From a virus (taxonomy: Duplodnaviria > Heunggongvirae > Uroviricota > Caudoviricetes), in the IMG/VR virus record IMGVR_UViG_2648501149_000019: a stretch of DNA of 23,836 nt. The stretch is one strand, 5' to 3'. The notes beneath the pieces are model-generated. The model was not told the origin of the DNA. It made no database searches and saw nothing but the letters and a program-made list of their open reading frames with translations. Position numbers and translations under genes: made by a program. This document shows, one piece after another, positions 6,634 to 19,600 of this stretch; the first letter of the stretch is position 1; every line of letters starts with the position of its first letter.

Positions 6634-6897
6634 ATGAAACATAAAGCCATAGAGAAAGCTATTGAGATTCTTGGAAGTCAGCAAGCCTTAGCCAAGCGAT
6701 GCGGAAAGGCCCAGTCAACAGTCTGCGATTGGTTGAACTGCAAGAACAAGATTTCACCAGAATTTGTGCCGTTATTGGTTGCAGCTGTCGACGGAAAGAT
6801 CCAAGCGTATGAATTTCGTCCAGACCTACCAGAGCTTTTTCCACATTCAGGCTTAGCGCACACAGAGGATGACAAGCCCACAGGAGACCAACAATGA
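6634..6897 (+). CDS. cro: Cro-like small DNA-binding regulator
   Basis: Track ORF 6583..6897, trimmed to the ATG at 6634 (MKHKAIEKAIEILGSQQALAKRCGKAQSTVCDWL...) with SD 'AGGAG' upstream. HTH-like segment. Divergent from cI. Confidence 0.65.
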   Translation: MKHKAIEKAIEILGSQQALAKRCGKAQSTVCDWLNCKNKISPEFVPLLVAAVDGKIQAYEFRPDLPELFPHSGLAHTEDDKPTGDQQ

Positions 6898-7601
6898 ACA
6901 CCGCAATTTTTAACGGCAAAGCATCCATGACCAGCGTTGAGATCGCAGAGCTGGTGGGTAGCCGCCATGACAAAGTGAAACAATCCATTGAGCGCCTTGC
7001 TGAACGAAGGATTATTCAGCTTCCCCCAATGGGGATTTCTGAAAATATCAATGGGTTAGGTTTAACTCAAAAAAGTAAGCATTATCTTTTCGAAGGTGAA
7101 CGAGGCAAACGCGACAGCATCATTGTCGTCGCACAGCTTTGTCCCGAATTCACAGCCCGCCTGGTAGATCGCTGGCGCGAACTGGAAGAACAGATCCGTA
7201 AGCCAATGAGCGAAATCGAAATGGTTGCCGCGATGGCTCTTGAAGCTGTTCGTCAGCAGAAACGGATCACTCAGGTGGAAGAAAAAGTCAGCCACGTTGC
7301 CGAAACAGTTGAGCAAATCAAAAAGGGCAACATTCGTGAGGGCTATGCCGGATATCGCCAACTGAAAGCAAAAACCGGTTTGTCAGATGATAAATGCCGC
7401 AATCTGGTGAACGCTTATCAAATTCCTACAGACACCCATGAGTTCATGACGCCGGACGGATTGTTGTCACGTCGCGCAATTGTTGCTGTGGAACCGTTTA
7501 TGGCTGCTTTTTATCGGATTATGGAGGAAGCAGAACCGCGAGGGACTCGCTGGTATCACCCGAAAATGGGGTTATTTCAGGTTATTGGTTGGCAGTGGTG
7601 A
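6894..7601 (+). CDS. Rha-family phage regulatory protein
   Basis: 235-aa ORF. N-terminal pattern 'MTSVEIAELVGSRHDKVKQSIERL' matches the Rha signature as I recall it. Start overlaps the cro stop. Confidence 0.7.
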   Translation: MNTAIFNGKASMTSVEIAELVGSRHDKVKQSIERLAERRIIQLPPMGISENINGLGLTQKSKHYLFEGERGKRDSIIVVAQLCPEFTARLVDRWRELEEQIRKPMSEIEMVAAMALEAVRQQKRITQVEEKVSHVAETVEQIKKGNIREGYAGYRQLKAKTGLSDDKCRNLVNAYQIPTDTHEFMTPDGLLSRRAIVAVEPFMAAFYRIMEEAEPRGTRWYHPKMGLFQVIGWQW

Positions 7602-7625
7602 AAAAAAGCCGGGTAGTGACCCGGC
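7601..7625 (-). terminator. Intrinsic terminator-like hairpin oriented for leftward transcription, inside the rightward early operon
   Basis: Minus strand reads GCCGGGT-CACT-ACCCGGC followed by 7 T. On the plus strand the A-run precedes the hairpin, so it would not terminate rightward transcripts efficiently. Confidence 0.5.
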
Positions 7626-15825: not shown

Positions 15826-15848
15826 GCTCGCTTTTGCGGGCCTTTTTT
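15826..15848 (+). terminator. Intrinsic terminator-like hairpin after the tRNA cluster
   Basis: GCTCGC-TTTT-GCGGGC (one G-U pair) followed by CTTTTTTG. Confidence 0.5.
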
Positions 15849-15980
15849 GTATCCGCGCCACGCCCGGCGCATACCAACCACAGAGCCTTTCGGGGGTGAG
15901 CTTACGGAGTGGTCAGTGTGACTTTCTCTGTGGGCAGATCGCTCCCGGGCGTTGGCTCCCCCACCCAAAGAAACGTCACG

Positions 15981-16399
15981 ATGTTTGGTATTTTTGGTAA
16001 AAAGGCCCGCAGAGCGGCAACGGAAATTAAAAAGTTTTAAAAACGCGATCTGGCACAGGCGGTGATTAACGCCGCATACCTGGTGGCTTGTGCAGGTGGT
16101 GAGTGAGGCTTCCGATCGAACAGGTACTGCGTAATCAGCCAGCGCTGTCCGCGTTTACGTCAGAAATTAATGCGATGAGCGCAACCATTATCGGTCAGCT
16201 GGATACGAACTTTAAAATTGGTCGTCGTGCGGCGTTACGTGAGATCGAGGATGTGAAACACGATACGCGTGAAGCGGAAGATGTGCTGGATGTGGCGGTG
16301 GCCATTGCGGAGGCAGAAGGCGAAATTGAGCCGGAAGAGCGCAAGGTGCTGGAAGAGATTGCCGGTGTTCTGGGTCTTCGTATGGATAATCACCTGTGA
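15981..16399 (+). pseudogene. TerB-like (tellurite-resistance TerB family) gene disrupted by a nonsense codon and a frameshift
   Basis: Frame 0 from ATG 15981 gives MFGIFGKKARRAATEIKKF, then TAA (16038-16040), then KRDLAQAVINAAYLVACAGGE, then TGA (16104-16106). The TerB-like continuation (RLPIEQVLRN...EINAMSATIIGQLDTNFKIGRRAALREIEDVKHDTREAEDVLDVAVAIAEAEGEIEPEERKVLEEIAGVLGL) is in the +2 frame (track ORF 16103..16399). Confidence 0.5.
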
Positions 16400-16563
16400 C
16401 GGTAAAACTGCGCCTGGTTGTGGCTGCACTCCTGCTGTTTCTGGTGGTGATGGTGGATTTCACCAGCAGAATCATGTCGGTGCTGGCGGATGGGGTGCTG
16501 GTCTGCGGCATTGTGGTATTGCTGTGGCCGGTGATAAAAAGAAACAGCATAAATAATGCTTGA
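16396..16563 (+). CDS. Small hydrophobic protein (55 aa), GTG start overlapping the preceding stop
   Basis: Manual translation VTVKLRLVVAALLLFLVVMVDFTSRIMSVLADGVLVCGIVVLLWPVIKRNSINNA. Two hydrophobic segments. No clear SD. Below the track length cutoff. Confidence 0.3.
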   Translation: MTVKLRLVVAALLLFLVVMVDFTSRIMSVLADGVLVCGIVVLLWPVIKRNSINNA

Positions 16564-16777
16564 TTTTTTTATTTACTGTTTATTAAAAACACTACTGCAT
16601 GGTGAATCCCCCTGTGCGGAGGGGCGACTGGTGTAGGTAGCATTTATTATGTTATAGGCAAGCCGACGCGGGTTCAGTGACACCGGCTGAATTCACCGGG
16701 AGGCACCCGGCACCATGCGCTGCAACAAAAGTGTTATTTCTGTTTTTCTCAAACTATCATCGTTATCCCTTTATTTC

Positions 16778-16806
16778 CGGCTGCGCATGGCGCGGCCTTT
16801 TTTTTA
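16778..16806 (+). terminator. Strong intrinsic terminator
   Basis: GGCTGCGC-ATG-GCGCGGCC hairpin (8 bp, one G-U pair) followed by 8 T. Confidence 0.6.
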
Positions 16807-17151
16807 CGACCAGCCACTGGCAGATGGTCATCCTGCGATTTGATTCCGGTTCCGGCTTTTTAACTCTGTTCCTGTACACGGGAGAAATTCGATGTCGATT
16901 AATCGTTATGATATTGGTTACAAGAAGTACCACGTATGGTGTTGAGATAAAAAGCCTGGTGCCAGAGGTAAATGCAGCAGCATAATAAAAAAAGAGCCAG
17001 CGCAGAAGAGAACGGGTAAAAGAGTCTGCGCTGGCGTGGGGATATTCCCCGTGGAGAAATGATATGTAACACACATCGGGAACCTTTCTATATAAACATT
17101 ATCATTATTGTCAATCATAACAGTCAGGTATTATGACGTTTATGCATCAGG

Positions 17152-17180
17152 GCCATCAGGAATTAACTGGTGGCTTTTTA
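17152..17180 (+). terminator. Terminator-like hairpin about 35 nt upstream of the holin start (candidate tR'-type element)
   Basis: GCCATCAG-GAATTAA-CTGGTGGC (8 bp, one G-U pair) followed by TTTTTATTGTTG. Confidence 0.45.
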
Positions 17181-17214
17181 TTGTTGTCAGCTTCCGGATA
17201 ACGGGAGACGGGGT

Positions 17215-17430
17215 ATGTACCAGATGGAAAAAATCACAACAGGTGTGTCATACACCACGTCAGCGGTGGGGACGGGATACTGGCTACTGCAGTTGCTGGA
17301 CAAAGTCTCCCCATCCCAGTGGGTGGCAATAGGTGTATTGGGTAGCCTGGTGTTTGGCCTGCTGACGTATCTGACAAACCTTTATTTCAAGATTAAAGAA
17401 GACAAGCGTAAGGCTGCACGGGGAGAGTAA
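17215..17430 (+). CDS. S: Class II pinholin, phage-21 S-type, with dual-start motif
   Basis: From memory, strong similarity to phage 21 S ('[40 protein letters not shown]'). Two TMDs. Starts MYQMEK, with Met1 and Met4 matching the S21 dual-start layout. SD 'GGAG' 8 nt upstream of ATG 17215. Confidence 0.85.
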
Positions 17431-17434
17431 TTCA

Positions 17435-17986
17435 ATGACTCAAAACTATGAACTGATTGTGAAAGGGATCCGCAATTTTGAGAATAAAGTTACGGTAACT
17501 TTAGCGTTACGGGACAAAAAACGCTTTGACGGTGAAATTTTTGACCTGGACATCTCGCTGGACCGTGTTGAAGGTGCCGCGCTGGAGTTTTATGAGGCAG
17601 CAGCCAGAAGGAGCATCAGACAGGTCTTCCTGGATGTTGCCGCCGGGTTATGTGAAGGGGGTGAGCAGTCGCCGGAAAAGCGCCCCATAATTTTAGAGGC
17701 GCAGAATGTGTGGATAACCTACAAAGGAAAGCTACCGGGAAGAATTACTGGTTCTCTGAAGACGCCACCGACGGCATTGCGGTCAGAAAAAGATGATATT
17801 GAATCGCCCATTGAAAAACTGGAGGGCAGAGTCGCTGATCTGAATAAAAAATTGTCGGTGCTGATCCCTTCTGAAGATGAAAAAAAACGCCGCGATGAGC
17901 AGTTTGCGGCGTTTTACGATTATTGCATTGAGGTTACTCGCAGGAATTTTGTGAAGATTTTTGAGGAGGGTAAATCTCTTCAGTAA
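17435..17986 (+). CDS. Hypothetical soluble protein (183 aa) inserted between holin and endolysin
   Basis: ATG 4 nt after the holin stop with SD 'GGGAGAG' 7 nt upstream. No TM segments. Charged C-terminal half. No recognisable domain. Confidence 0.65.
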   Translation: MTQNYELIVKGIRNFENKVTVTLALRDKKRFDGEIFDLDISLDRVEGAALEFYEAAARRSIRQVFLDVAAGLCEGGEQSPEKRPIILEAQNVWITYKGKLPGRITGSLKTPPTALRSEKDDIESPIEKLEGRVADLNKKLSVLIPSEDEKKRRDEQFAAFYDYCIEVTRRNFVKIFEEGKSLQ

Positions 17987-18194
17987 GCTTAATGGCGGAC
18001 GCTGCAATTAATTCTGGAAGGTCCGCAAGGTCATCTGTCAGTGGGAATGATGAAAAATCGGCGGCAGTTCTGTTAAGACGCGCTTTAACTAATTCCTTTT
18101 CTTTCTCCGGCAACAAGTTGATTAGAGCTACGACTGCTTGCCTGAGTGCGATTAAATCAGCAAAAGTTTGTTTTGGTAGATTTGTGTAATCCAT
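17934..18194 (-). CDS. Hypothetical acidic protein (86 aa), convergent with and overlapping the 3' end of the 183-aa gene
   Basis: Track ORF 17934..18200 (GTG). First ATG at 18194 (MDYTNLPKQ...). Weak SD. A GC palindrome lies upstream (18228-18252). Confidence 0.4.
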   Translation of the reverse strand: MDYTNLPKQTFADLIALRQAVVALINLLPEKEKELVKARLNRTAADFSSFPLTDDLADLPELIAASAIKLTEEIYPPQKSSQNSCE

Positions 18195-18306
18195 AGTCAC
18201 TCTGTGTTTATCAGATTGACATCCTCCTCCCGCCAGTGCCCATCACTGGCGAGGTAAGATTTAACATATCCGGGGATTTGAAGCCGATAAATCCTGATAA
18301 ATATCC

Positions 18307-18840
18307 ATGAGCGCAAAAATCAAATATGGCCTGTCGGCTGCCGTTCTGGCACTGATTGCCGTCGGTGCGCCTGCGCCTGACATTCTTGACCAGTTTCTGA
18401 ATGAAAAGGAAGGTAACCATACCACGGCATACCGCGATGGTTCCGGCATCTGGACCATCTGTCGGGGGGCCACGATGGTGGATGGAAAACCCGTTTTTCC
18501 CGGTATGAAACTGTCGAAGGAAAAATGCGACCAGGTTAACGCTATTGAACGTGATAAGGCGCTGGCATGGGTGGAGCGCAATATTAAAGTACCACTGACC
18601 GAATCACAGAAAGCGGGTATAGCGTCATTTTGTCCCTATAACATTGGCCCCGGTAAGTGTTTCCCGTCGACGTTTTATAAGCGGCTGAATGCCGGTGATC
18701 GTAAGGGTGCATGCGAGGCGATTCGCTGGTGGATAAAAGATGGTGGGCGCGATTGCCGCATACGTTCAAATAACTGCTATGGACAGGTTATTCGTCGTGA
18801 CCAGGAAAGCGCATTAGCCTGTTGGGGGATAGCTCAGTGA
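18307..18840 (+). CDS. R: SAR endolysin (phage lysozyme, T4-lysozyme-like/GH24, R21-type)
   Basis: 177-aa ORF. N-terminal signal-anchor-release segment '[18 protein letters not shown]'. Catalytic Glu-Asp-Thr pattern in '[22 protein letters not shown]'. Follows a pinholin. Confidence 0.9.
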
Positions 18841-19301
18841 GCAGAGTCGCTGCGATTATTTATGCTCTGGTTATCTGCATAATCGTCTGCCTGTCGTGGG
18901 CGGTCAATCATTACCGTGATAACGCCATCGCCTACAAAGAACAGCGTGATAAAAAAGTCAGTGAGCTGAAGCAGGCGACCGCCACCATTACTGACATGCA
19001 GCGGCGCCAGCGCGATGTTGCTGCACTGGATGAAAAATACTCAAGGGAGTTAGCTGATGCAAAAGCTGAAAATGATGCTCTGCGTGATGATATTGCCGCT
19101 GGTCGTCGTCGGTTGCGCATCAGAGCAGTCTGTCAGGCCGGACGTGAAGCCACCGCCGCCCCCGGCGTGGGTAATGCAGCCGCCCCCCGACTGGCAGACA
19201 CCGCTGAACGGGATTATTTCACTCTCAGAGAGCGGCTGATAATAATGCAAAAACAACTGGAAGGGGCACAGCTATACATTCGTGAGCAATGCCTCAGATA
19301 A
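18837..19301 (+). CDS. Rz: Rz i-spanin
   Basis: GTG start overlapping the endolysin stop (GTGA). N-terminal TM '[17 protein letters not shown]', coiled-coil periplasmic domain. From memory, strong similarity to E. coli prophage Rz proteins. Confidence 0.85.
19057..19239 (+). CDS. Rz1: Rz1 o-spanin (outer-membrane lipoprotein) embedded in Rz in the +1 frame
   Basis: 60-aa ORF wholly inside Rz. Lipoprotein signal with lipobox 'VVVGC'. Pro-rich mature region (PPPPPAW...PPPDW). SD 'GGGAG' 7 nt upstream. Confidence 0.8.
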
Positions 19302-19489
19302 AAACCGGCCAAGGATAATCCGCTGAAGATTCGCCGGTGGCACAAGAGAGCCAAGAGTTCAGCTTAGGCCATTACTCCTGTCGATGCAATGCACCGTCTG
19401 TGTGACGCCAGTGGATGCCTGATTTATTTCTGTGTTCTGTATCAGACGCTCGTTCATGGCTGCCTGGCTGACGGGTCCTCCCGGTGGGG

Positions 19490-19600
19490 TGGCCTGCCAC
19501 GGGGCGGGAGCGTCGCGGAAAAAGGCTAGTTTTTGAAATTTTATTCGTCATCACCACCACTGTAACTTATTGATATTAAAGTAGTTTTATTTTTATGGTG
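19490..19600. other. Lambda-like cos site (cosN about 19502-19513 plus cosB-like region)
   Basis: 'ACGGGGCGGGAGCGTCGCGG...TTTTTGAAATTTT...TTCGTCAT...AACTTATTG...TTTTATTTT' parallels the lambda left end 'ACGGGGCGGCGACCTCGCGGG...TTTATGAAAATTTT...TTCGTCAT...AACTTAATG...TTTTTATTT' from memory. cosN lies about 186 bp upstream of the terS ATG, against about 190 bp in lambda. Confidence 0.6.

Follow-up and report, generated by a model that had tools for sequence, protein, structure and literature searches.

A disrupted TerB-like cargo gene at the stx insertion site of an Escherichia coli lambdoid prophage

In the slot between the antiterminator gene Q and the lysis genes, where Stx phages carry the toxin genes, a viral sequence of 23,836 nucleotides (IMG/VR record IMGVR_UViG_2648501149_000019; hereafter the window, meaning the whole of this stretch) holds a TerB-like reading frame that is interrupted by stop codons and resumes in another frame, followed by a small hydrophobic ORF. 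The window is from an E. coli lambdoid prophage. Is the interrupted gene a decaying piece of cargo, the product of sequencing errors, or the source of a shortened but functional protein? A first-pass annotation, made from the sequence alone, favored a disrupted, decaying TerB-like moron, and direct reading confirmed all of its coordinates: the ATG at 15981, the TAA at codon 20, the TGA at 16104-16106 and both ORFs. The positions of the features discussed below are collected in Table 1.

Table 1. Features of the cargo region and its surroundings in the window.
Feature	Position	Strand	Basis or remark
Q	12155-12520		
DUF4236 protein gene, 395 aa	12688-13875	-	between Q and the Stx-phage-like region
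Late-operon DNA methylase pseudogene	14563-15526		
Three phage tRNA genes: CAT (ileZ-like), Arg-TCG, Arg-TCT	15567-15810	+	immediately upstream of the cargo
Terminator-like hairpin and T-run after the last tRNA	15826-15849	+	
Cargo segment allelic to stx2A-stx2B	15860-16578	+	BLAST breakpoints against Stx2_EH2246
Degraded Shine-Dalgarno, AAGGA to AAGAA, G>A at 15971	15966-15972	+	comparison with intact alleles
TciA/TerB-like pseudogene	15981-16399	+	alignment to intact CDSs in L002, L018 and phage Evi
Nonsense codon TAA, from GAA (E20), G>T at 16038	16038-16040	+	alignment; common to L022
D39G, codon 39 GAT>GGT, A>G at 16096	16095-16097	+	first A-D-G motif of the TerB domain
Junction of 2-bp deletion (AT)	16102-16103	+	alignment to intact 432-nt homologues
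Junction of 11-bp deletion (GAGAAAGCGAA)	16113-16116	+	alignment; takes out invariant residue E46
98-aa remnant ORF, GTG start	16103-16399	+	first 4 codons novel, the rest equal to TerB residues 50-143
Intact DUF3927/TciB-like small membrane protein gene, 55 aa, GTG start	16396-16563	+	Pfam DUF3927 5e-18, PHROG 1470 1.5e-29
STnc100-family sRNA gene, directly 3' of the cargo pair	16571-16751	+	Rfam RF02076, 117 bits against a gathering threshold of 47
P21-type holin	17215-17430		

The TerB/DUF3927 pair and its place in the prophage

The intact form of the gene spans 432 nt and encodes a protein of 143 aa. An intact homologue matched the Pfam TerB domain (PF05099; 55.8 bits against a gathering threshold of 24.4, 7e-15), PHROG 632 ('tellurite resistance', category moron; 7e-69) and, over residues 15-137, Klebsiella TerB (PDB 2JXU; 4e-8). 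An AlphaFold2 model of the intact protein, built with 31 homologues, was all-helical (pLDDT 88.6), with helices at residues 4-36, 44-55, 64-80, 82-94, 100-115 and 122-135 and a short C-terminal helix at 139-142. Foldseek searches of the PDB returned only weak matches, none at E <= 0.001; the best were to the TerB-like structures 2h5n (E 0.027) and 2ou3 (E 1.5). 2JXU was absent from these structural matches, and the sequence-level match to it is the better evidence. In the first D-G-x5-E motif, the residues D39, G40 and E46 range from conserved to invariant among the 31 homologues, with D39 conserved at a level of at least 90%.

Klebsiella TerB, which belongs to the terZABCDE tellurite-resistance/phage-inhibition operon, has the same Pfam domain as the intact prophage homologue, but the other ter genes are absent near the window gene. 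Its neighbors are tRNAs, DUF3927, an sRNA and holin/lysozyme/Rz genes, with no terC- or terD-type gene among them, and the tellurite label comes from homology only. None of the PADLOC defence models gave a significant match: the intact TerB homologue scored below threshold (15 bits, E = 0.002) and DUF3927 matched none. A literature search found no tested function for TciA, TciB or DUF3927. The family itself is widespread. TerB-like homologues occur in 130 phage records, from P1 to Erwinia jumbo phages, and the TerB/DUF3927 pair was matched in 966 of 5,426 complete E. coli genomes, at a median of six places per genome; copies in complete genomes are annotated as 'tellurite resistance TerB family protein' and 'DUF3927 family protein'. 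The intact prophage pair (WP_136139198.1 and WP_000216636.1; phages Evi, PPyecE_EH1910 and JLK-2012) has the same locus, flanks and gene order as the window, with a DNA identity of 95-97% outside the lesions. The window allele differs from it by a mutated Shine-Dalgarno sequence, a stop at E20, D39G and the deletion of 13 nt. The gene for sialate esterase (nanS-p) that usually follows the pair is missing both from the window and from phage Evi, which has the same layout from the pair to the holin gene.

The GTG start of the DUF3927 gene overlaps the TerB stop by 4 nt (GTGA, 16396-16399). Because stop and start overlap, the two genes are probably translationally coupled. The Shine-Dalgarno sequence in front of the DUF3927 gene is weak (-3.1 kcal/mol), and the gene probably relied for its translation on ribosomes finishing at the TerB stop. 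The 55-aa product is an exact match to WP_052893037.1 and is 50% identical to TciB of phage P1. In P1, the gene for a TerB-like protein of about 142 aa (tblastn identity 41-52%) overlaps the gene next downstream, for a DUF3927 protein of 54-55 aa; tciA, tciB and tciC overlap one another and lie among tRNA genes including one with anticodon CAT, as does the module in the window. The window thus has the order of a tciA-tciB module, a TerB-like gene and then an overlapping DUF3927 gene. We found no equivalent of tciC in the window: judged by eye, the 26-aa ORF after DUF3927 is unlike P1 TciC (35 aa), and the position of tciC in P1 is filled by the STnc100 sRNA region. The window copy further differs from that of P1 in that it lies in a lambdoid late operon and not in the ban region, and in that its tciA homologue is a pseudogene. 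Both the P1 tci module and the window pair are variable cargo, the former lost from about half of P1-like elements (PMC9603915). A natural fusion of the two proteins also exists: P0008 of E. coli PA11 (197 aa), which arises from a frameshift at the gene junction, has both Pfam domains.

The gene order in the window is Q, DUF4236 (reverse), methylase, the three tRNAs, the TerB remnant, DUF3927, STnc100, holin and lysis genes; downstream of the holin gene follow, in order, DUF1327, lysozyme, Rz and terminase. The cargo is therefore flanked by the Q-dependent late promoter/tRNA cluster on one side and by the lysis cassette on the other. The tRNA trio is the same as that found upstream of stx2, and the hairpin that follows it is kept in the Stx2 phage and in Evi. 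Homology to the Stx2a phage Stx2_EH2246 (L005) covers the methylase, the three tRNAs and the terminator up to window position 15859 and is found again from 16579. The BLAST breakpoints equate window 14586-15859 with L005 4146-5426, and window 16579-16717 with L005 6796-6940; stx2A-stx2B, at L005 5469-6709, lies inside the 1,369 bp between them. Since homology ends at 15859 and restarts at 16579, the cargo segment of the window is exactly allelic to stx2A-stx2B. The earlier proposal of a moron in the Q-to-lysis cargo slot was thus borne out to the base, the breakpoints being those of stx. For both cargoes the insertion point runs from the argO-like tRNA terminator to the STnc100-like sequence upstream of the lysis genes, and both are under Q-dependent late transcription; a crude scan for a promoter within 15811-15980 on the + strand found no sigma-70 consensus site. 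The two cargoes have no sequence or functional relationship, and they differ in size (719 bp in the window, 1,369 bp for stx2AB). The comparison provides a base-resolution record of the TerB/TciA-DUF3927 pair and stx as alternative cargoes of one slot.

Lesions of the TerB-like gene and spread of the allele

The ATG at 15981 is followed by 19 sense codons (MFGIFGKKARRAATEIKKF) and then by the TAA; past the TAA, the same frame runs on (KRDLAQAVINAAYLVACAGGE) to the TGA at 16104-16106. We aligned the window with the intact genes of L002 (E. coli O145:H28 16003), of L018, a metagenome contig that has the intact allele closest to the window, and of phages Evi and PPyecE_EH1910, and also with L001 (E. 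coli 90-3040), in which the gene is annotated from a different start. The first-pass annotation had implied one nonsense mutation and one single-base indel. The nonsense mutation was confirmed, but in place of a single-base indel the alignment revealed two deletions, with a net loss of 13 nt. The larger one lies between 16113 and 16114-16116, where GA microhomology makes its exact placement ambiguous. Alignment to intact homologues not only located these lesions but also added to the earlier inventory the loss of the Shine-Dalgarno sequence, D39G and the second deletion. All intact alleles have the Shine-Dalgarno sequence AAAGGAAC; the energy of the duplex with the anti-Shine-Dalgarno is -5.6 kcal/mol for the intact alleles as against -0.9 kcal/mol for the window. 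Further changes specific to the lineage are an A>C at 15959 in the 5' leader and the silent substitutions A>G at 16004 and C>T at 16088. No uninterrupted frame of the disrupted gene contains both D-G-x5-E motifs; the second alone survives. Programmed recoding, that is, readthrough of the stop combined with frameshifting, was ruled out: the intact homologues are contiguous, and 13 nt with an invariant residue are missing.

In the intact relatives, a 143-aa, all-helical TerB-domain protein would be translated from an AAGGA Shine-Dalgarno sequence, with the GTGA overlap leading, probably through translational coupling, into a 55-aa membrane protein with two predicted helices (DUF3927/TciB-like). 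The pair is a moron of the lambdoid late operon, between the ileZ-argN-argO-like tRNAs and the lysis genes. In the window lineage, which has lost the Shine-Dalgarno sequence, translation is predicted to end after 19 residues, so that the canonical frame could yield only a 19-residue peptide. A product of re-initiation would be cut off by the 13-nt frameshift, and the encoded domain has glycine in place of D39 and lacks E46 and the start of helix 2. With the coupling to TerB broken, translation of DUF3927 is likely to be reduced in the window.

Alternatively, the stop and the frameshift might be errors of sequencing or assembly, and the real gene might be intact. None of the complete E. coli genomes has the lesions: a megablast of the lesion region against the 5,426 genomes found intact alleles only, the best match being 90.2%. 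Many genomes also hold several copies of the locus, a situation that can mislead short-read assembly. However, the 611-bp segment 15960-16570 is 100% or 610/611 identical in 11 loci, drawn from independent NCBI assemblies of different projects, among them contigs of 80-119 kb, and from one ENA metagenome scaffold. The identical allele is present on at least 19-24 contigs of independent E. coli assemblies, and the exact 98-aa ORF is recorded on 19 contigs and has been deposited as 'TciA/TerB-like protein [Escherichia coli]' (CTT57563.1 and others). Errors do not typically take the form of eight separate differences with an 11-bp deletion among them, and five of the private substitutions recur in a related allele. 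We therefore take it as practically certain that the lesions are real.

The only site that varies among the carriers within 15960-16570 is 16528 (C/T), which changes residue 45 of DUF3927: it is P in the window, L007 and L015-L017, and S in seven other contigs. One assembly, GCA_001265795.1 (JHSC01000013.1), is 100% identical to the window over 13396-19563. Another contig, L014, has the same allele in a different RusA/Q backbone, and thus the dead allele has survived prophage recombination.

The remnant ORF and the history of the lesions

The 98-aa ORF, which ends at the TGA at 16397-16399, is still recognized by PHROG 632 (3e-41) and, just above the gathering threshold, by Pfam TerB (25.9 against 24.4 bits, 1.3e-5), although only over profile positions 63-109 of 118. 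Given the PHROG and Pfam matches, the TerB/DUF3927 feature is not a product of chance. The remnant has neither helix 1, nor the first metal-binding-type D-G-x5-E motif, nor the start of helix 2. Its GTG is preceded by a Shine-Dalgarno-like sequence, AGGTGGTGA, with a duplex energy of -10.2 kcal/mol that ranks among the strongest 6% of positions in the window. The spacer between the two is 0-3 nt, however, which is too short for normal initiation, and the geometry, as judged from the sequence, appears unsuitable for it.

An intermediate allele bears on the order of the lesions. L022, a 953-bp contig from a public read-set assembly and the one contig from which this allele is known, has 15959C, 15971A, 16004G, 16038T and 16575A as in the window. 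It has no deletions and retains D39, and its 3' end is of the L001 type; in this state, a 116-aa ORF with both motifs is open from GTG 16062. The combination 16571G+16575A in L022 is present in neither parental type, so that this combination is not a k-mer chimera; a join is possible within 16038-16088, a 50-nt identical stretch. Taken at face value, L022 suggests that the Shine-Dalgarno sequence was lost and the nonsense mutation arose first, and that D39G and the two deletions were later additions, which put an end to the 116-aa ORF. At its 3' end (16382-16594), the window allele clearly has the L018/L006 type, unlike L022, its nearest 5' relative, and this points to recombination within the gene. 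A dN/dS-style argument for the 3' end and DUF3927 was dropped, the apparent non-synonymous differences from L001 and L002 there being those of this existing allele type.

The changes are also clustered. Eight of the nine lineage-specific events fall within 156 bp (15959-16114; scan p ~4e-4), and the four events of the second phase fall within 27 bp (p ~1e-4); there are none in the next 454 bp, which comprise the 98-aa ORF and DUF3927, and none in the 131 bp upstream. This is not what uniform neutral decay predicts. It could reflect a short tract converted from an older pseudogene that has not been sampled, one event of error-prone repair, or homogenization of the flanks by co-resident copies.

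The clustering raises the possibility that the changes were imported in one step, as a gene-conversion tract from an older pseudogene or through one error-prone repair. The product would still be a pseudogene, with a different history. Templates would be ample, at a median of six places per genome, and the allele type of the 3' end, compared with L022, is evidence that recombination did occur in the gene. On the other hand, L022 implies at least two steps, and a donor is absent from the 5,426 complete E. coli genomes, from GTDB (one genome per species), from the JGI metagenomes and from the window itself. Exact scans of the GTDB and JGI sets with the deletion junctions and with a 21-mer spanning two of the SNPs gave no matches, so that these sets provide neither a donor nor further intermediates; a search of the window and its local repeats for a template-switch donor of the patch at 16086-16108 turned up nothing convincing. 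We regard import in one step as rather unlikely, with perhaps one chance in a few of being right. A different reading takes the 98-aa fragment for a functional, shortened protein: the A>G at 16096 and both deletions would have made a new Shine-Dalgarno-like element and a GTG, and the new ORF, in frame with the old C-terminus and ending at the GTGA, would couple DUF3927 again. The strength of AGGTGGTGA, the open frame down to the native stop that overlaps DUF3927, the Pfam score just above threshold, the non-random grouping of four mutations in 27 bp and the absence of lineage-specific substitutions from 16117-16570 all speak for it. Yet the spacer of 0-3 nt and the truncated domain weigh against such a protein, and the 131 bp of non-coding sequence upstream are equally free of private changes, so that the clean 3' part is no evidence of constraint. 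Furthermore, the intermediate still had an open 116-aa ORF that contained both motifs and was coupled in the same way, so that more was lost than gained through the later deletions; nor do other lineages, which break the gene in unrelated ways, converge on this architecture. We consider a functional 98-aa protein highly unlikely. The suggestion that only this fragment is expressed, offered as an alternative in the first-pass annotation, is likewise improbable, for what would be half a TerB domain with no usable ribosome-binding geometry predicted for it.

Very doubtful, too, is the idea that D39G and both deletions were selected after the coupling had been cut, the SD-like element and the GTG re-establishing an ORF that leads into DUF3927, with DUF3927 as the selected cargo and the TerB half-domain as a translational 'leader'. 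If true, it would fit the recurrent breakage of TerB with the DUF3927 frame kept open; the evidence, however, stands against a rescue of DUF3927 translation by the late mutations.

We conclude that 15981-16399 is very probably a non-functional allele of a prophage tciA/terB-like gene that has decayed stepwise. The lesions relative to intact alleles, the intermediate and the recurrent, independent disruption of the gene elsewhere all support decay, and the original description of the locus was in essence right. Decay has probably been progressive, because the neighboring methylase is also broken in the window and in two sister contigs. A frameshifting deletion of 95 bp just after codon 7 (junction 14585/14586) has removed the TDPPYF catalytic motif of the methylase and left the ORF at 14588-15526 (312 aa). 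This deletion is found only in the window and the sister contigs L008 and L016; in the other contigs with the dead TerB allele the methylase is intact (352 aa), and its lesion is therefore younger than those in TerB. The gene family, its position and the exact remnant ORF are already in public databases, and the gene is an ordinary pseudogene; it adds to the decayed cargo genes of E. coli prophages and carries little weight alone. It does bring a warning for annotation: database entries for a 98-aa 'TciA/TerB-like protein' are fragments of a pseudogene.

Other broken alleles and neighboring elements

At least six other alleles of the TerB-like gene are broken in other ways, and the DUF3927 reading frame is open in all of them (54-55 aa in six, 84 aa in L024 and 43 aa in L026). 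In L020, L024 and L025, a single base is missing from an A-run at codons 6-8 or 16-18, and in L023, 2 bp are missing near codon 60. In L021, L026, L027 and L006 (E. coli Z1323HEC0477), the 5' part is replaced by unrelated sequence, which leaves a C-terminal TerB fragment and the DUF3927 ORF; PGAP labels the gene of L006 'missing N-terminus'. This form probably explains PHROG 3920, a family of 48 aa that covers the TerB C-terminus only. The repeated inactivation of the TerB-like gene beside an open DUF3927 frame may be a clue to which gene of the pair selection acts on. In L006, the replacing sequence adjoins a small ORF for a 'TrmB family transcriptional regulator'.

The two A-runs in the first 18 codons (window 15999-16005 and 16026-16037) vary in length (A6/A7; AAAAA/AAAA). 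Variants in L001, L018, L020, L024 and L025 produce several independent frameshifts or alternative annotated starts; in L001 and L018, for example, a run of seven A instead of six shifts the N-terminus, and the annotated start differs. These runs look like hotspots of slippage.

Several other elements surround the cargo slot. The reverse-strand DUF4236 gene is another cargo insertion, located between Q and the sequence that matches the late-promoter-proximal part of Stx phages. Sequence homologous to STnc100 lies behind stx2B in the Stx2a phage (L005 6796-6940). STnc100 has been related to the PasD prophage sRNAs in a 2026 preprint, which describes TerB as a conserved neighbor of PasA/PasC. 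In the intergenic region before the holin gene, the tandem TTCCGG TTCCGG at 16838-16849 is a 6-bp duplication, present as a single copy in L002, phage Evi and L006. Finally, farther upstream in the window, Rfam detected the Hfq-binding RNA isrK at 7771-7847 (+; 57.6 bits) and a C4 antisense RNA at 7872-7959 (+; 85 bits), both adjoining ORFs for Ant-like antirepressors (6894-7601 and 7480-8376). C4 antisense RNA is a control element of P1/P7-type (immI-like) immunity.
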